NCBI GenBank assembly: GCA_963796285.1
Contig: CAWCKW010000012.1
Coordinates: 1,280,001 to 1,344,000 of the forward strand
Origin: Nitrospirota bacterium
Lineage (GTDB): Bacteria; Nitrospirota; UBA9217
Direction: 5' to 3'
DNA: 64,000 bases
Shown here: in pieces, positions 1-59,058 of the stretch
How positions within the stretch are numbered: position 1 is the first letter of the stretch
How the letters are laid out: each line of letters starts with the position of its first letter
Notes under the pieces: model-generated
The model's database searches: none
Seen by the model: only the letters and a program-made list of their open reading frames with translations
Told to the model about the DNA's origin: nothing
Translations under genes and position numbers: made by a program

Positions 1-1380
1 ACGAGCTACTCCGATGGAGCAATCTACCCCTTCACAGCTGACATCACGCTGTACGCTCAGTGGAGCGCGCTGCCCAACCACACCGTGACCTTCAACAGCA
101 ACGGCGGCACGGGCTCGATGAGTAACCAGATCGCCAATGTCCCGACGGCGCTGACAGCCAACACCTTCACGCGCACGGGCTACACCTTCAGCGGCTGGAA
201 CACCGCGGCTGACTGGCGGCGGCACGAGCTACGCCGATGGCGCAACCTACGCCTTCACAGCTGACATCACGCTGTACGCCCAGTGGACCGCGCTGCCCAA
301 CCACACCGTGACCTTCAACAGCAATGGCGGCACAGGCTCGATGAGTAACCAGATCGCCAATGTCCCGACGGCGCTGACAGCCAACACCTTCACGCGCACG
401 GGCTACACCTTCAGCGGCTGGAACACCGCGGCTAATGGCGGCGGCACGGCCTACGCCGATGGAGCAACCTACGCCTTCGCAGCTGACATCACGCTGTACG
501 CCCAGTGGACCGCGCTGCCCAACCACACCGTGACCTTCAACAGCAATGGCGGCACAGGCTCGATGAGTAACCAGATCGCCAACGTCCCGACGGCGCTGAC
601 AGCCAACACCTTCACGCGCACGGGCTACACCTTCAGCGGCTGGAACACCGCGGCTAATGGCGGCGGCACGACCTACGCCGATGGAGCAACCTACGCCTTC
701 ACGGCTGACATCACGCTGTACGCCCAGTGGAGCGCGCTGCCCAACCACACCGTGACCTTCAACAGCAATGGCGGCACAGGCTCGATGAGTAACCAGATCG
801 CCAATGTCCCGACGGCGCTGACAGCCAACACCTTCACGCGCACGGGCTACACCTTCAGCGGCTGGAACACCGCGGCTAATGGCGGCGGCACGACCTACGC
901 CGATGGAGCAACCTACGCCTTCGCAGCTGACATCACGCTGTACGCCCAATGGAGCGCGCTGCCCAACCACACCGTGACCTTCAACAGCAATGGCGGCACC
1001 GGCTCGATGAGTAACCAGATCGCCAATGTCCCGACGGCGCTGACAGCCAACACCTTCACGCGCACGGGCTACATCTTCAGCGGCTGGAACACCGCGGCTA
1101 ATGGCAGCGGCACGGCCTACGCCGATGGAGCAACCTACGCCTTCGCAGCTGACATCACGCTGTTCGCCCAATGGACCGCAAACCAACCACACCGTGACCT
1201 TCAACAGCAATGGCGGCAACCGGCTCGATGAGTAACCAGATCGCCAATGTCCCAGACGGCGACTGACAGCCAACACCTTCACCTCACGGGCTTCACCTTC
1301 AGCGGCTGGAACACCGCGGCTAATGGCAGCGGCACAGCCCTATGGAGCAATCTACCCCTTCGCAGCTAAATCGCCCTTTA
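1..1380 (+). repeat. About six near-identical 222-bp tandem repeats
   Basis: CACCGTGACCTTCAACAGCAA recurs at 81, 304, 526, 748, 970 and 1190. Confidence 0.95.
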
Positions 1381-19365: not shown

Positions 19366-19447
19366 CACACGAAGCCACAAAGACACGAAGAAAAAACTAT
19401 TGATTATAAGAGGGTATTACCTCTCCGTGGTTTCGTGACTCAGTGTG
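19366..19447. repeat. Inverted-arm element, CACGAAG/CACAAAG variant (empty)
   Basis: CACACGAAGCCACAAAGACACGAAG ... CTCCGTGGTTTCGTGACTCAGTGTG. Confidence 0.6.
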
Positions 19448-29507: not shown

Positions 29508-30008
29508 ATGGATACGTCAAAAAAAGAAGATACGGGCATGCATATCAAATCAGCCATAGGGCAAGAGCTGCTTGTGCGGGATGTGATGACCAAGGGGGTC
29601 ATCTCCATTTCAAAATTCGAACCCGTTATGCAGGTGGCGGACATCTTGACGGAAAAAAATATCAGCGGCCTTCCGGTGGTGGACAAGGAAAAAAAAGTGA
29701 TCGGCATCATTACTCAGGCCGATATCCTCTCCATGATCGGGGTGAGCAGGGACCACACGTTCAAAGATCTGTTAAAACACATGCTGGGAGAAACACTGCC
29801 GGAACGCAGGATCGGGGACCATGTCGGGGACATAATGACGTCCCCGGCACACACCATAAAACCCGATGCAAATATTGCCGAAGCAGTGCGGATCATGGAT
29901 GAAAAAAAGATCAGAAGGCTGACCGTGACGGATGAAAAAGGCATACTCATCGGGATCCTGACACGGGCTGACATTTTAAAGGCCGTCATAATCAAAATAA
30001 GGTCTTAG
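29508..30008 (+). CDS. CBS-domain pair protein
   Basis: VRDVMT, ISGLPVVD, GIITQADIL, VGDIMT, GILTRADIL. Confidence 0.92.
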   Translation: MDTSKKEDTGMHIKSAIGQELLVRDVMTKGVISISKFEPVMQVADILTEKNISGLPVVDKEKKVIGIITQADILSMIGVSRDHTFKDLLKHMLGETLPERRIGDHVGDIMTSPAHTIKPDANIAEAVRIMDEKKIRRLTVTDEKGILIGILTRADILKAVIIKIRS

Positions 30009-30049: not shown

Positions 30050-30156
30050 TCTCGCAGAGGCGCAGAGGACGCAGAGTTAAAGCAAAACATTTTCGTCATG
30101 GTTTTAACCCGGAATATTTTTAATCTTTTCTCCGCGAACTCTGCGCCTCTGCGAGA
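30050..30156. repeat. Inverted-arm element, CGCAGAG variant (empty)
   Basis: TCTCGCAGAGGCGCAGAGGACGCAGAG ... CTCCGCGAACTCTGCGCCTCTGCGAGA. Confidence 0.8.
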
Positions 30157-32190: not shown

Positions 32191-33072
32191 ATGTCAATGG
32201 CAGAAGCGGACTTCTCGAAAAAAGAAAAAAATTATTATACGGACATCCCGCAAAAGAGCGAAGCTTTTTTCCTGAAAGGATCGAACGCCTATGACTGGGG
32301 CATGAAGAACAGGCTGGCCCGCATCTTCAATCCCCGGTCCGGGAAGACCGTGATGCTGGCCTTCGACCATGGGTATTTCCAGGGCCCCACGACCGGTCTC
32401 GAGCGCGTTGACGTAACGATCCGGCCACTCATACCCTACGCCGACGCCCTGATGCTGACGCGCGGCATCCTGCGCTCCGTCATCGAACCGTCGTCGACCA
32501 ACGCGGTGGTCATGCGCGCAAGCGGCGGGCCGAGCATCCTGAAAGAGCTTTCCAACGAGCATATCGCCGTGGACATCGAGGACGCTTTGCGCATGAACGT
32601 GAGCGCAGTGGCGGTGCAGGTCTTTATCGGCGGCCCTCACGAGACCCAGACGGTCAATAACATGACCCGGCTCGTCGATATGGGCATGCGCTACGGCATG
32701 CCGGTGCTCGGGGTCACGGCGGTCGGTACGGAGCTTGTCCGCGATGCCCGGTATATCGGACTGGCAACGCGCATCCTGGCAGAACTCGGGGTCTCGATCG
32801 TCAAAACCTATTTTGTCCCGGGGTTCGAGCAGGTCGCCGCCGCGTGTCCCGTGCCGATCGTGATCGCGGGCGGAAAAAAACTTCCCGAACGCGAGGCGCT
32901 TCAGATGGCCAGGGATGCGATCAACCAGGGCGCCTCCGGTGTGGACATGGGCAGGAACATTTTTCAATCCGATTCGCCGGTTGCCATGATCAGTGCCGTG
33001 CGCATGGTCGTGCACGACAACGCCACGGTGAATGAGGCTTACGAATACTACCAGGATATGAAGAACAAATAA
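32191..33072 (+). CDS. lsrF: LsrF-like thiolase (class I aldolase family)
   Basis: [44 protein letters not shown]. Confidence 0.88.
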
Positions 33073-33091
33073 AGAGGATCAATGTCGTTGG

Positions 33092-33162
33092 CACTGATAT
33101 TCACTGATAAAGCCTATGAAGAATCATGTTTTTTCATAGCCGTTATCCGCCCTTAATCTGTG
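33092..33162. repeat. Inverted-arm element, CACTGAT variant (degenerate)
   Basis: CACTGATATTCACTGAT ... ATCCGCCCTTAATCTGTG. Confidence 0.4.
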
Positions 33163-33237
33163 TCAAAGGTTATGCATCGTTGCAGTTTATTGTTTCCCGC
33201 TTCCAGCTTTTCCGTTTCGGGTGATAGGTAATTTGAC

Positions 33238-34266
33238 TTGAAAACAGGCGTCTACTATCGCAACAGCGACGTCCGGGTGGAAGAGCGTCCGGAGCCGAAG
33301 GCCGGCGACCGCGACATCGTGGTCAAGGTCATGGCCTGCGGTCTGTGCGGGTCCGATCTCATGGAATGGTACCGGATCAAGCGGGCGCCGCTGGTGCTGG
33401 GCCACGAGCCGGCCGGCATTGTTGTCGAAGCAGGAAAACTCGTCAGCACCGTCAAACCGGGAGACCGCGTCTTTGTCACCCACCATGTCCCCTGCAATTC
33501 CTGCTATCACTGCCGTAGCGGACACGAAACCGCCTGCACGACCTTCCAGAGCACAAATAATTTCGATCCCGGCGGTTTTTCACAACTCCTGCGCGTGACC
33601 GGAAAAAGCGTTGAGACCGGTACCTTCGTGCTTCCCGACTCCGTGAGTTTCGAACAGGCGACCTTTATCGAACCGCTGGGGACCGCGGTGAGGGCGCTCC
33701 GGACCGTGGGACTGAAACCAGCCCAGAGCGTGCTCGTCTGCGGCAGCGGCGTTGCCGGCCTGCTCATCATCAAACTGGCGCGTGCCATGGGAGCAGGCGT
33801 CATCATCGCGACCGATGTGAGCCCGTACCGTCTTGAGAAGGCCCGTGAATACGGGGCCACGCACACGATCGAAGCCCACGAAGACGTCCCCGCGTTCATC
33901 AGAACAGTCAATGAAGGCCGATTGGCGGACATCGCCATCCTGTGCGCCGGCGCGCTTCCTGCCGCGCGCACCACGCTTCAATCCGCCGAGCGCGGAGGCA
34001 CCATCCTGTTCTTCGCAGTGCCGAAACCGGGCGAGACCGTTGCTGTGGATTTCAATCCCTTCTGGCGTGACGATATCACGATCAAGACCTGCTACGGCGC
34101 CGCCCCCATCGACAACCTGCAGGCCCTCGATCTCATCCAGCACGGCACAGTGACGGTGACCGACATGGTGACGCACCGGTTCGGCATCGACAGGATCGGC
34201 GAGGGATTTCTGACCGGCGCCCGGCCCGACGGCTGCGTGAAGGTCATTATCGAGCCGAACCAGTAA
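33238..34266 (+). CDS. Zinc-dependent alcohol dehydrogenase family protein
   Basis: CGLCGSD, GHE, CxxCxxC...C, GSGVAG. Confidence 0.92.
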   Translation: MKTGVYYRNSDVRVEERPEPKAGDRDIVVKVMACGLCGSDLMEWYRIKRAPLVLGHEPAGIVVEAGKLVSTVKPGDRVFVTHHVPCNSCYHCRSGHETACTTFQSTNNFDPGGFSQLLRVTGKSVETGTFVLPDSVSFEQATFIEPLGTAVRALRTVGLKPAQSVLVCGSGVAGLLIIKLARAMGAGVIIATDVSPYRLEKAREYGATHTIEAHEDVPAFIRTVNEGRLADIAILCAGALPAARTTLQSAERGGTILFFAVPKPGETVAVDFNPFWRDDITIKTCYGAAPIDNLQALDLIQHGTVTVTDMVTHRFGIDRIGEGFLTGARPDGCVKVIIEPNQ

Positions 34267-34294
34267 TATTGTACGAGGCGTTGCCTCGGAAAAT

Positions 34295-34378
34295 CCCCCT
34301 CACCCCCGCCCTCTCCCCGTTGGGGCGAGGGAGTTTTTTATTTCCTCTCCCATCAGGGGAGAGGATTAAGGTGAGGGG
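34295..34378. repeat. Branched palindromic repeat (CCCTCTCCC type)
   Basis: Outer CCCCTCACC/GGTGAGGGG enclosing two hairpins, CCCTCTCCCC..GGGGCGAGGG and CCTCTCCC..GGGGAGAGG. Confidence 0.7.
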
Positions 34379-34415
34379 TGGTTGTTCCGGCGTCCTATTT
34401 AGATCGGAGAACCGT

Positions 34416-35680: not shown

Positions 35681-35804
35681 TTTCTCGCAAAGACGCAAAG
35701 GTCGCAAAGGAAAGCATTACTAAACAACTAAAGCAAAGCATTAGCCTTTGTCTTAAAGCAAAGGATTTAGCCCTTCTTTGCGTACTTTGCGTCTTTGCGA
35801 GAAA
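35681..35804. repeat. Inverted-arm element, CGCAAAG variant (empty, 66-bp AT-rich spacer)
   Basis: TTTCTCGCAAAGACGCAAAGGTCGCAAAG ... CTTTGCGTACTTTGCGTCTTTGCGAGAAA. Confidence 0.85.
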
Positions 35805-36906: not shown

Positions 36907-37752
36907 ATGAATACATCAAAACTCACCAAGCTTCTCCAAAGCGTTAGGTCCGGCAAGATCGATGTCGAAACCGCTCTCAACCGGCTCAAGCACCTGCCCT
37001 TCGAGGACGTGACATACGCCAACATCGACCATCATCGCCACTTGCGCCACGGCATGCCCGAGGTCATCTACTGCGAAGGGAAGACCCTGGAGCAGGTCGT
37101 CGGCATCACGAGGCGCATGCTCAAGGCCGGGAGCGACATCCTCGCCACCCGCGCGTCGGAAGCGGTCTATAAAGCAGTTAAGAAACTCGATCGCCGCGCG
37201 GTATATCACAAAGCCTCACGCGCCATCGTGGTACAGGACAAGAAGAAGACACTGACCAGCGGTATTGTGCTCGTCCTGACCGCAGGCACATCGGATATCC
37301 CCGTTGCCGAGGAGGCCGCCGTGACCGCGGGGATGCTCGGCAGCACTGTACAGACCGTATACGACGTGGGCGTGGCAGGGATCCACCGCATCCTGAGCAA
37401 ACGGGAAACGCTCGACTCCGCCAGGGTGATCGTCGTGGTAGCGGGCATGGACGGCGCGCTCCCATCGGTCGTGGGCGGGCTCGTGGACAAACCAGTGATC
37501 GCCGTTCCCACGAGCGTCGGCTACGGCGCCGGGTTCAAGGGACTGGCCCCGCTCCTCACCATGCTCAACTCCTGCGCGTCAGGCATCGCGGTCATGAACA
37601 TCGACAACGGCTTCGGCGCCGGAGTGCTGGCGCACAGGATAAATCTATTGGGAGAAAATAATCAAGAAGCGCCCCCTCCTTCGAAATCGGGGAGAATCCC
37701 GGGAAATGAAAAAGGATGGATCAGCGTTAAGAGAATTTCAGGTAATCGCTGA
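36907..37752 (+). CDS. larB: Nickel-pincer cofactor biosynthesis protein LarB
   Basis: DHHR..R.G.PEVI, AGTSDIPVAEEA, DVGVAGIHR, AGMDGALPS, PTSVGYG, NIDNGFGA. Confidence 0.95.
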   Translation: MNTSKLTKLLQSVRSGKIDVETALNRLKHLPFEDVTYANIDHHRHLRHGMPEVIYCEGKTLEQVVGITRRMLKAGSDILATRASEAVYKAVKKLDRRAVYHKASRAIVVQDKKKTLTSGIVLVLTAGTSDIPVAEEAAVTAGMLGSTVQTVYDVGVAGIHRILSKRETLDSARVIVVVAGMDGALPSVVGGLVDKPVIAVPTSVGYGAGFKGLAPLLTMLNSCASGIAVMNIDNGFGAGVLAHRINLLGENNQEAPPPSKSGRIPGNEKGWISVKRISGNR

Positions 37753-37849
37753 CCAATTCAATCAGCATACGCTTTACTGGAACAGATTGCATGACTGAGC
37801 ACCGTTTGCACAGTGCAAACGCGTCCCACCATTAGGAGGCCATCCCTGC

Positions 37850-40047
37850 ATGGAAATCGAGTTACTTATTCCGATTCTGGCTCTCGGTACTCAGCTAGTG
37901 TCGGTTTATTTTGCGATTCGATTGTTGCGATATGCCAAAATGCGGGTTATTGCGGTCGTATTTATTCTCGCGGTCTCTCTCATGGCGTTGCGCCGGATGT
38001 TTTCACTGGTTCCGAATTATGTTCCGAGCGACATGACAGGAGGCGCGTTCTCGGATACCGTCGCGCTTTTCATTTCACTCCTGATCCTGTACGTGGTCCG
38101 CTCGCTTGGCCGTATTTTCATGTCGGAGGAGGCGAATATGAATGCCGCGCTGTCCGCTGAAAAGCGCTATCGAACATTGTTCAACCAATCTCCGGACGGC
38201 GTCCTGCTGATTAATGCTAAGGGCGACATTGTTGATTTCAACAATGAAGTCAACCGTCAACTTGGATACACGCGCGAAGAATTCAGCAAACTGCGGATAT
38301 CGGACATCGATCCCGTTGAAAATGAGGCTGACGTCGGGTCACGTCTGGCGAAAGTCCTGAAGGTCGGTAAGGATGACTTTGAGGTAAAGCACAAAACCAA
38401 GCAGGGTGAGATACGGGATGTTCTTGTTATTGTCCAGCCCCTCGATTTGTCCGGTCAAACATTCTTCCACACTATCTGGCGCGATGTCACAGAGAGCAAG
38501 AAAGCAGAGGAGGAGCTAAAAAGGAACGAAATATTCATCAGGAGCATTCTTGAAAGTATAGATGAGGGGTTTGTCGTCGTAGGCAGGGATTATCGGATCA
38601 TTTCGGCGAACAAGGCTTATTGCGATCATGCCGGGATTACAATGGAAAATGCAATTGGCCAATATTGCCATGTCGTGTCCCACCACAGCGACAAACCATG
38701 TTTTGAAGCCGGGGAGCAGTGCCCCGTGAAGTATACCTTTGATACGGGAGAACCTGCCCAATTTTTACACATACATTACGATAAACACGGGAACCCCTCG
38801 TTCGTTGATACAAAGGCGTATGCCATGCGGGATGCAGCGGGCACTGTGACCGCCGCAATCGAGATAGTAATGGACGTCACTGATAGAAAAAAATTGGAGG
38901 ACCAGTACCGCCAAGCCCAGAAAATGGAGGCGATCGGTCAGCTTGCCGGCGGTGTGGCTCACGATTTCAACAACATTCTGTCCGCGATCATCGGCTATGG
39001 CCACCTTTCCCTGATGAAACTGCGAGACGATGATCCGGTGAGGCACTTTATCGACCAGATTCTGCAATCTTCGGACCGCGCAGCCGTTTTGACGCAGAGC
39101 CTGCTCGCATTCAGCAGAAAGCAGCCCCTGAAAAAAGAGCTTAATGATTTGAACGCGGTGATCAAGAATTTCGAGAAATTCCTTCTCCGTCTGCTGCGCG
39201 AGGACATCGAAATGAAGATCCGGTACTCGGACGACCAGCCCGTGGTCATGGCGGATAGTGGGCAGGTCGAGCAAGTGATCATGAATCTCGCTTCGAACGC
39301 ACGCGATGCCATGCCGAACAATGGGAAGCTGACTATCGATACCAGTGTCACTAATATGGACGAGGCGTTCATCCGGTTGAACGGTTACGGGAAGCTGGGA
39401 GAATACGCCGTAATGTCGGTGTCGGATACTGGCGTCGGAATGAACAAAGAGACCCAAAAGAAAATTTTCGAGCCGTTCTTCACGACCAAGGAAGTGGGGA
39501 AAGGGACCGGTCTCGGACTGGCCACGGTGTATGGAATAGTGAAAGCGCACGATGGATTCATCAATGTGTATTCCGAGCCGGGGAAAGGGACAACCTTTCA
39601 TGTTTATTTCCCCCTTGCTCGAACAAAGAATGCAGTGCCTAGATGTTGCGGAGCGAACCCCGGTCCAAGCTCAAGGGCGGCAGCGAAACGATCCTGCTTG
39701 CCGAGGACGACGCGAGTCTCCGCGAAATGACGTCGGCCATTCTCCGAGACATGGGTTACACGGTGATTGATGCGGAGGACGGAAATAGGGCGGTTGTCCG
39801 GTTTAAAGAGAACCGCGCCGCGATCAAACTCGTAATATTGGACGCTGTCATGCCGAAGAAGAACGGTTTGGAAGCGTATCGGGAGATCAGTGCTCTCAGC
39901 CCGAAGGTCCGCTGCATTTTCATGAGCGGCTATACCGGAGAAGTATTCGCCGAGGACGGCCCGCCGGCCGGTACGGAGTTTTTACCTAAGCCTCTTCAAC
40001 CCCGGATGCTTTTGTCCAAGGTCAGGGAAATGCTTGACCGGGAGTAG
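37850..40047 (+). CDS. Hybrid PAS sensor histidine kinase/response regulator; frameshift near 39640
   Basis: TM helices, two PAS domains, VAHDFNN, GTGLGL; receiver domain (ILLAEDD, ILDAVMP, FLPKP) in the next frame. Confidence 0.92.
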
Positions 40048-40242
40048 AAAGGGGCAACGGGCAAGGAATGAGTTCCTCGCTTTCAACTCATCGCGCGTGC
40101 AACCTTCATCCCGAATTTGCTGGTCGTTTCAAACAATGAGAACTGCACAATTGCAGGTATATGCGGTAAAGTTCATGCGCGCAGAAGGATGCATGTTTTC
40201 AGGTTGAAATATGACTATTGATGGCAACCAAATAATAAACCT

Positions 40243-41436
40243 ATGACCCTCGCTTACTTCGACTGCTTTTCCGGGATATCCGGCGACATGACCCTCGGCG
40301 CGCTTGTTGACGCGGGTGTCTCCATCGACGCCCTGCGCGCCGAGCTGGCCAGGCTCAATCTCCCCGGCTACGAGCTCAAGGCAGAAAAGGTCAAACGCTC
40401 CGGCATTGCCGCGACCAAGGTCCATGTCATCATCGACCAGAAGGACCAGAACGCGCGCCATCTTGCCGACATTTTGAGCATTATTGAAGCCTCCACCCTT
40501 TCTCCAACCGTGAAGGAGAAAAGCAGCCGGATATTTACACGCCTTGCTGATGCGGAGGCAAAGGTGCACGGCACAACACCCGACAAGGTCCACTTCCATG
40601 AGGTCGGCGCTGTGGACTCCATCGTGGACAATGTCGGGGCTGTTATCGGACTGGAGCTGCTGGGAATCAAGCGGGTCATGGCATCGGCGATCAATGTGGG
40701 TTCAGGCATGGTCAAAACCTCTCACGGCATGCTTCCGGTACCCGCACCCGCCACGGCGGAGCTGCTTACCAACATCCCCTTTTATCAATCGTCGTCACAA
40801 TTCGAGCTCACCACACCGACCGGCGCGGTCATCATCAGCACTCTCGCTTCCTCCTTCGGCCCCATGCCGGCGATGAAGGTCGAGCGGGTCGCCTATGGCG
40901 CGGGCGACAAGGATTTCCCGGGTCAGCCGAATGTCCTGAGGCTCATGATCGGACAGCCCATAGCGGGTTATGAAGAAGACACGTCCATCGTCATCGAGAC
41001 GAACATCGACGACATGAGCCCGCAGGTCTATGACTACCTCATCGAGAAGCTCATGCAGCAGGGCGCGCAGGACGTTTATCTCACACCCATTATCATGAAA
41101 AAAGGAAGACCCGCGATCCTGCTCTCGGTGCTTACTGATAAGACAAAGACAGATGCCGTGCTCGATACGATCTTCCGGGAAACGACCAGCATCGGCGTCC
41201 GTATCCATGAAGTTGGCAGAAAGAAGCTCACGCGGGACATCCGGGAAGTCGATACGGTTTATGGCAAGATCAGAATAAAGATAAGCAGGCGGGCTGATGA
41301 AGTAGTGACGATAACACCGGAGTATGAGGACTGCAGAAGGATCGCGGAAAAAATGCAGATACCTTTAAAGCAAATCATGGAAGAAGCGAAAGACATGTTT
41401 TCTCGCAAAGACGCAAAGGGCGCAAAGGAAAGCTAA
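40243..41436 (+). CDS. larC: Nickel-pincer cofactor biosynthesis protein LarC (fused C1-C2)
   Basis: YFDCFSGISGDM, VHFHEVGAVD, PVPAPAT, TPTGA, ETNIDD, MKKGRP, PEYED. Confidence 0.95.
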   Translation: MTLAYFDCFSGISGDMTLGALVDAGVSIDALRAELARLNLPGYELKAEKVKRSGIAATKVHVIIDQKDQNARHLADILSIIEASTLSPTVKEKSSRIFTRLADAEAKVHGTTPDKVHFHEVGAVDSIVDNVGAVIGLELLGIKRVMASAINVGSGMVKTSHGMLPVPAPATAELLTNIPFYQSSSQFELTTPTGAVIISTLASSFGPMPAMKVERVAYGAGDKDFPGQPNVLRLMIGQPIAGYEEDTSIVIETNIDDMSPQVYDYLIEKLMQQGAQDVYLTPIIMKKGRPAILLSVLTDKTKTDAVLDTIFRETTSIGVRIHEVGRKKLTRDIREVDTVYGKIRIKISRRADEVVTITPEYEDCRRIAEKMQIPLKQIMEEAKDMFSRKDAKGAKES

Positions 41437-41878
41437 AAGTATTGGGCTGTATGACTGAAAACGAAATAGCTAAAATCGTTGTTGATCTGTGTGTTAAAAT
41501 TCATAAGACTCTTGGTCCGGGGCTCTTGGAGTCTGTTTATGAAGCAGCTCTCGTGTACGAGCTTAAAAAACTCGGCATTCCTGTGGAGCAACAAATTGAC
41601 ATTCCCGTGGAATATGATCATTTATATTTGGACATTGGGTTCAGGGCAGATTTGATAATCGACAACAAAGTCATCGTGGAACTAAAATCAGTTGAGACAT
41701 TACTTGCTGTTCATAAAAAACAGCTTCTGACCTATTTAAAGCTTTCAAAATATAAGCTTGGCCTTCTGGCCAATTTTAATGTCGACCTAATGAAAGATGG
41801 CATTACCCGTTTCGCGAATGGCCTTTGATTTTAATCCGGAATCACGCCTTTCTTTGCGTCCTTTGCGTCTTTGCGAGA
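41401..41878. mobile_element. GxxExxY gene bracketed by 27-bp inverted arms (CGCAAAG x3)
   Basis: Left arm TCTCGCAAAGACGCAAAGGGCGCAAAG (41401-41427); right arm 41852-41878 is its reverse complement with one mismatch. Confidence 0.7.
41451..41828 (+). CDS. GxxExxY protein (PD-(D/E)xK nuclease-like)
   Basis: LGPGLLESVY, FRADLII..KVIVELKS, QLLTYL, GLLANF; lower GC than its neighbours. Confidence 0.93.
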   Translation: MTENEIAKIVVDLCVKIHKTLGPGLLESVYEAALVYELKKLGIPVEQQIDIPVEYDHLYLDIGFRADLIIDNKVIVELKSVETLLAVHKKQLLTYLKLSKYKLGLLANFNVDLMKDGITRFANGL

Positions 41879-41921: not shown

Positions 41922-43634
41922 ATGAGAACAATACGCATTTCCATGGCCCAGATCAACCCTATTGTCGGCGACCTCGCGGGCAACCGCGATAAGATCATCG
42001 ACGCTATCAAGAGCGCGAAAAAGCTCGGTGCCGACATTGTCGCGCTGCCTGAGCTTGCCGTGACCGGCTATCCGCCCGAGGACCTGATCCTGAAGCCCCG
42101 GTTCGTGAAGGACAATATCAAGACGCTCACAGATATTCAGCAGGCGACGAGGGGGATCGTCGCGATCGTCGGATTCGTTGACAGCAACCACGATTGCCTC
42201 TTCAATGCCGCCGCAGTGCTGGCCAACGGAGAGCATATCTACACCTATCGCAAGATATTCCTGCCGAACTATGGGGTGTTCGATGAACACCGGTACTTCA
42301 GCCCGGGAGGACGCTATCCCGTCTTTACCGTCAAAGGCGTCGGCGTGGGCGTGAACATCTGCGAGGATATCTGGTATGAAGAAGGGCCTGCGCGCGTCCA
42401 GGCATTGGCAGGCGCCGAAGTGATCGTCAATATCAACGCGTCTCCCTACCATAAAGGCAAGGGGAAAGAGCGCCTGAAAATGCTTTCCCAACGCGCGAAA
42501 GAGAATGACATCGTCATCTCCTACACCAATACCGTAGGCGGTCAGGACGAGCTCGTATTTGACGGCCAGAGCATGGTACTGGACCGGAAAGGAAACGTGG
42601 TCGCCCTGGGGAAACAGTTCGAGGAAGACATGCTGACCGAGGACATTGCTGTCCCCGGGGACAGGATCCCGTTTCCCGAGGACCGGGAGCAGTTCAGCGA
42701 CTTCATGGACTACGTCTCCCTCTCCGGACGACCGAAAGGGAAAAAGAAGCCGCTTCCCGCCGTACGCTCGGCCAAACCACTCGCGGTGTGCGAGGAGGTG
42801 TACCGCGCCCTTGTGCTCGGGACCGGGGATTATATGCGCAAGAACGGCTTCAAGTCCGCGGTCATCGGTCTGTCGGGCGGCATCGATTCATCCCTCGTTG
42901 CAGCTGTTGCGGTGGCAGCCATGGGGAAAGAGAACGTGACCGGCGTGTTCATGCCGTCGCAGTACAGCTCGAACGAGAGCTGCGAAGACGCGTATGATCT
43001 TGCCCATAACCTCGGCATCAGGATCCTGGAGATCCCCGTCAACCAGACCTTTGAATCGTATCTGACAACGCTCCGCGGCGTCTTCGCGAGGACAAAGATA
43101 GACGTGACCGAAGAGAACCTCCAGGCCAGGATACGGGGAAACATCCTCATGGCCCTCTCGAACAAGTTCGGCTGGCTCGTGCTCACGACGGGCAACAAGA
43201 GCGAGATGTCCGTGGGTTATGCAACGCTATACGGCGACATGGCCGGCGGTTTTGCCGTGATCAAGGACGTGCCCAAGACCCTGGTCTACGAAGTGTCACG
43301 ATGCGTGAACAAGCTTGCGGGGAAGACCGTGATCCCGAAGCGGGTCATGACCAAAGCCCCGACCGCGGAACTTCGGCCGAACCAGAAGGACAGCGATTCC
43401 CTGCCTCTTTATTCCGTTCTTGACCCGATCCTGAAGGCCTATGTGGAGGATGACAAGGATCGGAACGAGATCATCAAGATGGGGTTTGACCCCAGGACCG
43501 TGGAGCGCGTGGTCCGGCTCGTGGACTCCAGTGAGTACAAGCGCCGCCAGGCGCCGCCAGGCGTCAAGATAACTCAACGGGGATTGGGAAAAGACCGAAG
43601 GTTCCCGATAACGAATAGATATAAAAGTTCTTAA
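41922..43634 (+). CDS. nadE: Glutamine-dependent NAD+ synthetase
   Basis: Nitrilase domain (PEL, K, ICED) plus GLSGGIDS, ENLQARIRG, TGNKSE, EYKRRQ. Confidence 0.96.
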   Translation: MRTIRISMAQINPIVGDLAGNRDKIIDAIKSAKKLGADIVALPELAVTGYPPEDLILKPRFVKDNIKTLTDIQQATRGIVAIVGFVDSNHDCLFNAAAVLANGEHIYTYRKIFLPNYGVFDEHRYFSPGGRYPVFTVKGVGVGVNICEDIWYEEGPARVQALAGAEVIVNINASPYHKGKGKERLKMLSQRAKENDIVISYTNTVGGQDELVFDGQSMVLDRKGNVVALGKQFEEDMLTEDIAVPGDRIPFPEDREQFSDFMDYVSLSGRPKGKKKPLPAVRSAKPLAVCEEVYRALVLGTGDYMRKNGFKSAVIGLSGGIDSSLVAAVAVAAMGKENVTGVFMPSQYSSNESCEDAYDLAHNLGIRILEIPVNQTFESYLTTLRGVFARTKIDVTEENLQARIRGNILMALSNKFGWLVLTTGNKSEMSVGYATLYGDMAGGFAVIKDVPKTLVYEVSRCVNKLAGKTVIPKRVMTKAPTAELRPNQKDSDSLPLYSVLDPILKAYVEDDKDRNEIIKMGFDPRTVERVVRLVDSSEYKRRQAPPGVKITQRGLGKDRRFPITNRYKSS

Positions 43635-43699
43635 ATCCGGTTTCGAGAGGCGCAGAAGTCAGAGAAAAGCATAAAGCTGACTTTTCGATTAGAAGCATT

Positions 43700-44225
43700 C
43701 TGCATAGGCGTAATGGGGAGATATCTCACGAAATAGGCTGGCAGATGTAAACGAGAAAAGCACTGGTGAATCTATGCCGACTTCGCACAAGTGCTGATCA
43801 AAATCGCCAGGGAGTTGTAAGCAAAAGAAATTTTTAGCCTGGAGTTGAAGAATACCGTCTACGCTTTCGATTAAACAACCATCGATCTCTGTCTTTCGGT
43901 TTTTCCCTGAGCAAAGGTACGCAAAGCGAAAGCTGCGGTGAAGCTTCATACGCTATTGGATCTCCAGGGTAAGAGCCCTGTTATGATCAGCATTACCAGT
44001 GGAAAAATAGGCGATGTCAGCGCGCTCGACGATCTCATCTTCGAAGCCGGGGCGATCTATATTTTCGACCGGGGTTACATCGATTTCTCCCGGCTCTATC
44101 GGATTCATCAATCTCTTGCGTTCTTCGTAACTCGCGCGAAGAGCGATTTTGTTTTCAAACGTCTCTACTCTCAACCGGTGGACAAATCGACCGGTGTACG
44201 GTCAGACCAGATCATTAACAACTAA
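43700..44225 (+). pseudogene. IS4-family transposase remnant
   Basis: VKLHTLLDL, YIFDRGYIDF, FFVTRAK, VDKSTGVRSDQ; stops and frameshifts upstream. Confidence 0.85.
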
Positions 44226-44247
44226 GGCTTTTCTTAAAAATTCTTTT

Positions 44248-44274
44248 CTTAGCGTACTTTGCGTCTTTGCGAGA
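44248..44274. repeat. Orphan right arm of the CGCAAAG element
   Basis: CTTAGCGTACTTTGCGTCTTTGCGAGA. Confidence 0.75.
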
Positions 44275-55664: not shown

Positions 55665-55671
55665 GTCGTCA

Positions 55672-55753
55672 TCACGAATAACACGAATGGTCGAATTGCA
55701 CGAAGCAAAACTTAGACCTTTTCGTGAAATTCGTATCTTCGTGCAATTCGTGT
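55672..55753. repeat. Inverted-arm element, CACGAA variant
   Basis: TCACGAATAACACGAATGGTCGAATTGCACGAA ... TTCGTGAAATTCGTATCTTCGTGCAATTCGTGT. Confidence 0.8.
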
Positions 55754-55795
55754 TAACGCTTTGCTTTGGCTTATTCAGTTGAGGAGAAGCAGTCC

Positions 55796-57632: not shown

Positions 57633-57697
57633 TTCCGCTACCGGCAGCCAATACTTATCCACACCTGACCCGGACAAGTTGGAACCCTAATCTTTTA

Positions 57698-57782
57698 ACA
57701 CGAATTTCACGAATGATCCGAAGGCCACGAAGAGAAAATTCTTGCTTTATTCGTGTAATTCGTCCATTCGTGCCATTCGTGA
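57698..57782. repeat. Inverted-arm element, CACGAA variant
   Basis: ACACGAATTTCACGAATGATCCGAAGGCCACGAA ... TTCGTGTAATTCGTCCATTCGTGCCATTCGTGA. Confidence 0.8.
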
Positions 57783-57893
57783 TAACGTTTGCGTGATGTT
57801 CTTATCACTTTAGAATAATTTGATTCATAACCACCTGACTTCCCATCACTGGGGAGGCAAGCACTACATGAACAGAAAAGAATGGAGCAAATC

Positions 57894-58977: not shown

Positions 58978-59058
58978 ACCGCGAAGGCGAGAACGAGTGC
59001 GAAGGGTTAACGTCAAATTAATTGAGGCTTTTCTTCGCAACCGTTGCGACTTTTCGGT
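58978..59058. repeat. Inverted-arm element, CGCGAAG variant (degenerate)
   Basis: ACCGCGAAGGCGAGAACGAGTGCGAAG ... CTTCGCAACCGTTGCGACTTTTCGGT. Confidence 0.6.

Follow-up and report, generated by a model that had tools for sequence, protein, structure and literature searches.

The object of this study is a 64,000-nucleotide (nt) stretch of a Nitrospirota genome (assembly GCA_963796285.1, contig CAWCKW010000012.1, positions 1,280,001 to 1,344,000; hereafter the window), in which a small gene of the GxxExxY family lies between the host genes larC and nadE, enclosed by inverted arms of repeated heptamer words. This 478-bp unit (window positions 41401–41878) is best read as a hairpin cassette in a very large, cross-phylum selfish family with the architecture of the open reading frame (ORF)-bearing intervening sequences (IVS) of 23S rRNA, and about 100 gene-less hairpins with the same type of arm are best counted as part of the same system. 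Our comparisons show that gene and arms form one selected unit, that the unit moves, and that arrays of the arm words go with the gene. It appears to be selfish DNA of a type not described before, with kinship to the inserts that carry genes in rRNA.

Structure of the cassette between larC and nadE

The host genome (G000) consists of 13 contigs and is 96% complete with 5% contamination. In the larC–nadE cassette the left arm (41401–41433, forward strand) is composed of TCT, three CGCAAAG words with periods of 8 and 9 nt, and GAAAGC; the right arm (41846–41878, forward strand), which is complementary to it, has three CTTTGCG words followed by AGA. A first reading of the window from its letters alone (the sequence-only reading) had placed the gene between inverted triple-CGCAAAG arms, and this was borne out: the arms measure 33 nt each, are 91% complementary and enclose 412 nt, with spacings of 1–2 nt between the words in each arm and outer ends of TCTCGC.../...GCGAGA. 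A single ORF (41454–41828, forward strand), encoding a GxxExxY protein of 124 residues with the profile of a PD-(D/E)XK mini-nuclease, stands alone inside the arms, without a partner gene.

The upstream host gene larC (40243–41436, forward strand; PF01969) encodes a nickel insertion protein. As had been noticed earlier, the left arm doubles as its final 11 codons (C-terminus ...SRKDAKGAKES); the larC stop codon lies at the inner edge of the arm, and larC of cassette-free relatives terminates about 12 codons sooner. The downstream host gene, nadE (41922–43634, forward strand), encodes NAD synthase. In the predicted RNA fold the arms pair as a stem of ∼36 bp (z −5.4). A scan for sigma-70 promoters of the GxxExxY gene gave one site, which is inside the ORF, with no excess over shuffled sequences, and no Rfam family was matched between positions 29800 and 44600.

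The GxxExxY protein

The ORF matched PF13366 (PDDEXK_3) with an expectation (E) value of 3.5e-40 (137.4 bits, cut-off 22) and TIGR04256 (GxxExxY) with an E value of 2.3e-41 (140.8 bits, cut-off 35). PF13366 was the sole Pfam family matched, and there was no match to a Y1 (HUH) transposase. The motif residues are G23xxE26xxY29, D66, E76-x-K78 and Q90xxxY94; the D...ELK that had been read from the translation is found here as D66...E76-x-K78. None of 21 diverse sequences departs from G23, E26, D66, E76, K78 or Q90, and Y29 and Y94 are nearly invariant. The resulting pattern, E...D...ExK...QxxxY, is what we take to be the RecB/Cas4 type. The structural neighbours of the AlphaFold model (predicted local distance difference test score of 92.4) were all PD-(D/E)XK nucleases (BglII, Z 7.3; NucS, Z 6.8; Cas4 SSO0001, Z 6.3; Hjc, Z 6.1), each with Z below 8 and none standing out. 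Foldseek against the PDB returned nothing at E ≤0.001 (the top row was Cas4, E 0.034), and a sequence search of the PDB gave no solved chain below E 0.79.

The ratio of nonsynonymous to synonymous substitution rates (dN/dS) was 0.10 for the copies of genomes G006 and G005, and 0.06 for the copy at 41454–41828 against that of locus L087, which shows that the protein is under purifying selection. Judged by motifs and predicted fold, GxxExxY is a putative minimal RecB/Cas4-like PD-(D/E)XK nuclease, and the invariant residues, the dN/dS values and the nuclease-fold model argue that it is kept as an active enzyme. Natural tandem proteins with two GxxExxY domains (266–295 residues) were also seen, which is compatible with a dimer (P0001–P0003 and P0132 are the proteins cited for tandem and fusion forms). 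In one protein a NUDIX domain is fused ahead of the GxxExxY domain, which may represent a host gene reading into a cassette. The family counts 18,750 representatives of 50%-identity clusters at E ≤0.001 and 5,949 at 1e-10. A survey of PD-(D/E)XK proteins carries GxxExxY (PF13366) as 'Unknown' (PMC3424549).

Association of gene and arms

All GxxExxY genes of the host genome lie inside arm pairs (3/3); the second cassette (C12:332565–333040) has CGCGAAG/CGCAAAG words, and the third (C1:83665–84120), which is frameshifted, has ACAGGAT words. Within a phylum sample, a flanking inverted repeat scoring above all 30 shuffles accompanied 30 of 31 GxxExxY genes, with arms made of two to three tandem words. 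A single-protein search yielded 492 relatives, the best 80 of which, representing the query's nearest subclade only, served as cross-phylum loci; they come from Planctomycetota, Bacteroidota, Chlorobiota, Cyanobacteria, Acidobacteriota, Chloroflexota and others (56–68% protein identity, with one at 94%). Arms were present at 67 of the 78 testable loci of this set, and the words were nearly all CGCAAAG-like. In 60 of the cross-phylum loci the third codon positions have reached saturation (identity 0.318), yet CGCNAAG words stand on both sides of the gene in 55 of 104 cassettes. The commonest layout was a single hairpin around the gene (29/75); in another layout, seen at 6 loci, a complete hairpin stands on either side of the gene. 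The identity of the arms in an end-free global aligner was dropped as a measure, shuffled arms giving a baseline of 0.715 against the observed 0.813.

The earlier suggestion that arm words are specific to subfamilies stood in part. Along a 104-protein tree the class of arm word switches 25 times, compared to at least 43 times in 200 shuffles, showing that words follow the protein tree; most word families of the host genome have no resident cognate gene (see below).

The arrays go with the gene. In family f1 all 21 gene-bearing genomes have 7–215 arrays and all 6 gene-less genomes have 0–1, and both states are found within genera g23 and g25. The numbers of exact triple arrays of CGCAAAG/CGCAGAG were 39/11 in G000, 17/3 in G015, 2/23 in G005, 4/19 in G006, 5/11 in G001 and 20/10 in G004, and the dominant exact word agrees with the type of the larC–nadE cassette in five of these six genomes. 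G004 is a mixed genome, with a second, CGCAAAG-armed cassette elsewhere. Outside f1 the association loosens: G019, G037, G039, G119 and G135 have the gene, with words of another kind, and lack these arrays altogether. Overall, the data support the conclusion that gene and arms are one unit moving between lineages and phyla. A very large family without known function can now be linked to a definite DNA architecture, which accompanies it from phylum to phylum.

Turnover at larC–nadE and at other sites

The larC–nadE site was compared in 17 related genomes, some of which are fragmented. It is gene-bearing in nine, has gene-less hairpins or arm arrays in five, no element in two and an unrelated ORF in one; the filled, empty and absent alleles that the sequence-only reading had proposed to look for were all found. 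CGCAAAG-armed cassettes occupy the site in G000, G015, G016, G013 and G012, and a different GxxExxY gene with CGCAGAG arms in G001, G004, G005 and G006. Gene-less hairpins or bare arrays of other words are present in G003, G014, G007, G017 and G018; G009 and G011 are without any element, and G008 has the unrelated ORF. Frameshifts in G004, G015 and G001 are possible assembly errors. The right arm and its flank are repeated three to four times in tandem (period ∼100 nt) after the cassette of G012 (locus L016).

The identities of element and flanks are discordant. Between G000 and G004 the flanks at larC–nadE are 92.5% and 95.3% identical and the element 75.7%; between G000 and G015, which belongs to another genus, the element is 84.9% identical and the flanks 78.7% and 78.9%. 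At locus L087 a 94% identical GxxExxY protein is found at the same site, with flanking proteins that are 80% and 72% identical. These discordances indicate that the cassette was exchanged while its site stayed the same. Other loci in G004, G008, G003 and G014 hold relatives of the second cassette.

Gene-less elements also differ between close relatives. The element at 55672 is present in G005; G004 and G006 lack it, their genes standing 21 and 19 nt apart, and the whole composite at 57698 (see below) is absent from G004. One pair of dispersed copies is 92.6% alike only between the arm termini, and its flanks align only in opposite orientation, indicating that the arm-bounded segment flips; G006 and G003 show such a flip at 35681 as well. 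At this last site G000, G004 and G005 share a homologous loop and homologous flanks; all six words are CGCAAAG in the first genome and CGCAGAG or CGCGGAG in the other two, with the change falling on the same word position in both arms. The switch took in six words around a loop that is still homologous.

Of the sequencing runs listed for the stretch, 20 were DNA runs with partial shares of it and none was an RNA run. The search for excision junctions in reads, also proposed earlier, did not bear fruit: contigs from four sequencing runs contained none joining larC straight to nadE, and 'joints' of 401–433 nt were other short arm-sharing hairpins and not excision products. In run X1 the depth was 130–289 for the arms and 5.7 for the gene interior, contig depths being of a kind that cannot be ranked. 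At G042:C44:248215–248434 a decayed remnant of a GxxExxY C-terminus with three stops lies between CACAAAG arms; it is an intermediate of cassette decay.

Gene-less hairpins in the genome and in the window

Exact triple arrays of 6-mers, after merging, numbered 89 in the genome and 2 in the shuffled genome. With one mismatch allowed there were 354 arrays, 193 of them with words of the type CRCNRAK, and the pattern CRCRRAG in three copies gave 61+49 matches as compared to 1+0 for the reversed-pattern control. Arm pairs amounted to 87 genome-wide, with loops of 20–122 nt in 74.

Four gene-less hairpins that had been proposed in the window were confirmed, two of them with wider boundaries: 35681–35804 (CGCAAAG; 29-nt arms, 93% complementary, 66-nt loop), 30050–30156 (CGCAGAG; 45-nt arms, 76%; also in G004, with other words at the same site of G005), 55672–55753, extended to 55667–55758 (CACGAAT; 38-nt arms, 76%), and 57698–57782, extended to 57695–57785 (CACGAAT; 21-nt arms, 86%; within a longer composite repeat). 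At 19366–19447 (CACGAAG/CACAAAG) and 58978–59058 (CGCGAAG-type) the left arm is good and the right arm decayed; the repeat finder gave no pair at either, and both were read by eye. The stretch 33092–33162 is not of the same design and holds two CACTGAT words and a local 21-nt hairpin. A CGCAAAG-type right arm at 44248–44274, thought to stand alone, is real and intact and has a decayed left partner at about 43641–43670. The two delimit a broken element after nadE (43641–44274), interrupted by a DDE-transposase fragment (43938–44225; PF01609, 95 residues).

The likeness between the gene-less copies and the cassette is limited to the arms (positions 1–27..44 and 445–478 of 478). The view that these copies are deletion derivatives or excision scars of the cassette was therefore rejected.

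About 20–25 hairpins are embedded in a composite repeat of ∼190 nt (for example G000:C12:140498–140896; in the window 57660–57830 and the left flank of 30050). Its outer flanks are constant, the left one starting with TTAGTAACTAAGGAAT and the right one ending with GGTTCCGGCTTGTCCGGGTTAGG, and complement each other weakly; hairpins with differing words follow one and the same left flank. The loops at C12:1825010–1825289 and C12:1217561–1217776 contain another widespread palindromic repeat (GTCATTCC...GGAATCC...GGATGACG), indicating that repeat families are nested in one another.

Other stretches of the window vary as well. The site of the broken element at 43641–44274 holds AGGGT/GGTTCA-type hairpins in G004, G005, G006 and G001. 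A 180-nt intergenic stretch (33068–33248) is found only in G000; 15 nt take its place in G004, G001 and G006, and a different, GC-rich palindromic repeat in G005 and G003. The 95-nt stretch at 34291–34385 is repeated at 94–97% identity on several contigs of G003, G004, G005 and G006 and may be a tRNA or other repeat. The genes for a PAS histidine kinase and a response regulator (37850–40047) have no syntenic counterpart in the closest relative, G004, which has 124 nt in place of the 2584 nt at 37647–40231.

Proposed mechanism and alternative explanations

We consider the chances about even that the nuclease reads the word repeats of arms that are folded or single-stranded and cleaves them, and that the arms, at times together with the gene, are spread by repair from another copy. 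The arms would fold back in DNA as a hairpin or cruciform and, in addition, as the ∼36-bp stem in the larC–nadE transcript. The nuclease, probably a dimer, would recognise the words in the folded or single-stranded arms and cut; repair would then put the arms of another copy, with or without the gene, into the cut site. Such homing-like conversion would account for the swaps at one site, the flips and the joint rewriting of six words. The 420-nt loop of the cassette would be expected to extrude poorly, by which the cassette would escape its own enzyme, and the RNA stem, as a likely substrate of RNase III, could make insertion in operons tolerable, as in rRNA.

A number of observations weigh against this role of the nuclease. 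For most of its word families (CGCAGAG, CACGGAG, CACGAAG, CACGAAT and CGCAGAT) the genome has no cognate resident GxxExxY gene. Outside f1, arrays occur without a detected gene in G023 (22), G089 (53), G095 (21), G081 (12) and G038 (10), the last four genomes being 70–93% complete. IVS-type four-helix-bundle genes are present outside rRNA, with the same arms, in G000 and its relatives: TIGR02436 genes, whose family was first met in 23S rRNA intervening sequences, showed the same arm design in 28 of 30 rows, corresponding to 27 of 29 distinct loci since one G000 locus entered the count twice, and in G000 itself seven matches were found, two of them intact, with arms detectable at four. Their words are mostly different, some being CACAGAG/CACAAAG as in GxxExxY cassettes. 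As these genes have no nuclease fold, the nuclease cannot define the architecture. The gene-less copies have nothing but the arms in common with the cassette, and no consistent target-site duplication was seen at 82 elements or at 8 composite copies. Arm mismatches, compared as G.T and A.C pairs, had no bias to G.U on the sense strand (84 versus 69, and 36 versus 30) and so give no support to RNA-level selection on the arms, nor do they tell it from selection on the DNA. Shared descent would likewise produce the covariation of arm word and protein and the counts of co-occurrence, and the related genomes are not independent samples.

Several of these points would fit a hairpin that is itself the selected or mobile vehicle, similar to repetitive extragenic palindromes (REPs) or IVS and moved or kept by host functions (recombination at palindromes, replication slippage, RNase III tolerance), with the GxxExxY and four-helix-bundle ORFs as inert cargo. 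Two unrelated ORF families share one architecture and partly the same words, some word families and some genomes have arrays and no gene, and the loops of gene-less copies are unrelated to the cassette. The Coxiella IVS is of the same design, is cut by RNase III and has an ORF that is seemingly not expressed (PMC4990558). We nevertheless regard this explanation, the main rival, as possible rather than probable. A passenger without a role would not retain invariant catalytic residues and a dN/dS of about 0.1 across phyla, nor would the same heptamer be kept beside the gene when synonymous sites saturate. Moreover, the triple arrays of GxxExxY-type words in G000 number 109 against at most 8 for the words of its four-helix-bundle genes, and arrays vanish with the gene within genera.

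Vertically inherited, immobile host hairpins, acting as terminators or mRNA stabilisers beside a gene long resident at larC–nadE, appear very unlikely. The sequence-only reading had stated that most elements lie just after stop codons, which is too strong; they are enriched there, short of a majority (31 of 82 elements against 563 of 5000 random positions, or 11%, in a crude test that accepted the stop of an open frame of ≥150 codons within the arm or ≤30 nt before it). This position, the small terminator-like hairpin and T run at the right end of the cassette, and the occurrence of a cassette at larC–nadE in 9 of 17 related genomes would all suit such a hairpin. The discordant identities of element and flanks would not; nor would the empty sites in the closest relatives, the same cassette lineage at other loci, or a near-identical architecture in many phyla at 56–68% protein identity.

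We attach very little probability to ordinary miniature inverted-repeat transposable elements (MITEs), moved in trans by a transposase encoded elsewhere, with the GxxExxY gene trapped in one copy. Short inverted-repeat elements in high copy number, one composite subfamily of 190 nt with constant outer flanks, and an 8-nt direct repeat (CACCTGAC) on both sides of the copy at 57698 are what MITEs would give. However, no transposase was found between arm pairs up to 1.5 kb apart, and the longer ones among these pairs span housekeeping genes between two adjacent hairpins; the only nearby transposase piece, at 43938–44225, interrupts an element and is not bounded by it. A target duplication was not consistent at the elements or composite copies examined, and arms around the gene at 67 of 78 cross-phylum loci are beyond chance trapping. 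The earlier proposal of an element that needs no classical transposase is supported in part, in that gene and arms move as a unit and dispersed gene-less copies come and go in close relatives; its account of the gene-less copies as excision scars or deletion derivatives of the cassette did not survive.

A defence or toxin-type nuclease, the arms being merely a regulatory or expression feature, is highly improbable: the nuclease fold and a weak match to the Cas4-like phage family PHROG_1706 (E 1.2e-5) would agree with it, but no PADLOC model matched the protein, one small gene without a partner lies within the arms, matches occurred in 0 of 50,697 phage records and 6 of 72,556 plasmid records, and the gene-less hairpins would be left unexplained.

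Returning to cleavage by the nuclease, a wider proposal is that GxxExxY proteins are the enzymes of a new minimal class of mobile element, comprising a 124-residue nuclease and a heptamer-word hairpin, in which extruded short-loop hairpins would be cut and the long loop would shield the cassette. We put this forward tentatively and hold it to be rather doubtful as it stands. If true, it would account for gene-less hairpins in the hundreds per genome, for the in-place rewriting of six words and for the spread of the family over many phyla, and it would be the first mechanism for the puzzle of the ORF-bearing rRNA IVS. Should the nuclease act on the arms, the cassette would be a new mobile system of very small size, whose short recognition word looks programmable; should it not, the hairpins would be a vehicle that captures small genes, which is equally unexplained. 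The data also connect GxxExxY to plentiful short palindromes for which genome annotation usually offers no explanation.

Comparison with known systems

A literature search found no published description of the GxxExxY cassette or of its gene-less swarm. The protein resembles nucleases of the Cas4/RecB family and of the Hjc type in its core fold and in the motifs E...D...ExK...QxxxY; it differs from Cas4 and Hjc-type nucleases in having no iron–sulphur cluster domain and 124 residues only, with all Z values below 8. With homing endonuclease genes the cassette has in common a nuclease ORF at a site that is also found without the ORF, the replacement of alleles and an insert whose history differs from that of its flanks. 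In contrast to these genes, there is no intron or intein, cassette and gene-less form share only about 30 nt of homology on each side, and the target would be a repeated hairpin and not a unique gene.

In a REPtron a palindromic repeat that is dispersed in the genome stands, in inverted copies, on both sides of a single small gene. The REP/REPIN system with its REP-associated tyrosine transposase (RAYT) is similar to the present one in that a gene is flanked by an inverted dispersed repeat, gene-less copies are many and repeat families vary by genome. The differences are a PD-(D/E)XK instead of a Y1/HUH protein, the tandem-heptamer arms, the word families without a resident gene and the cross-phylum spread.

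The nearest published relative of the cassette is the Coxiella intervening sequence (PMC4990558). According to that paper, ORF-bearing IVS of 23S rRNA are found in helix 45 of Coxiella burnetii and, by citation, in Leptospira, Xanthomonas and Brucella; the Coxiella IVS has a 28-bp terminal stem with three GACAGAT heptamers in tandem ahead of the S23p ORF, RNase III cleavage falls in mid-stem and the ORF is seemingly not expressed (PMC4990558). The same paper regards IVS as selfish, with mobility unknown and origin unresolved, matters that have been open since the 1990s (PMC4990558). Our cassette and these inserts agree in a unit of ∼0.45 kb, a stem of terminal inverted repeats, tandem heptamers in the arm next to the start codon and one small ORF in the loop. 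They differ in location, the cassette sitting between larC and nadE and not in 23S rRNA, in the ORF, which is PD-(D/E)XK and not S23p/TIGR02436, and in the ∼100 dispersed gene-less copies. The four-helix-bundle cassettes with the same architecture link the GxxExxY cassette to the 23S rRNA IVS. The heptamer-arm architecture has thus already been published for rRNA, and for its GxxExxY version our literature search found no publication.

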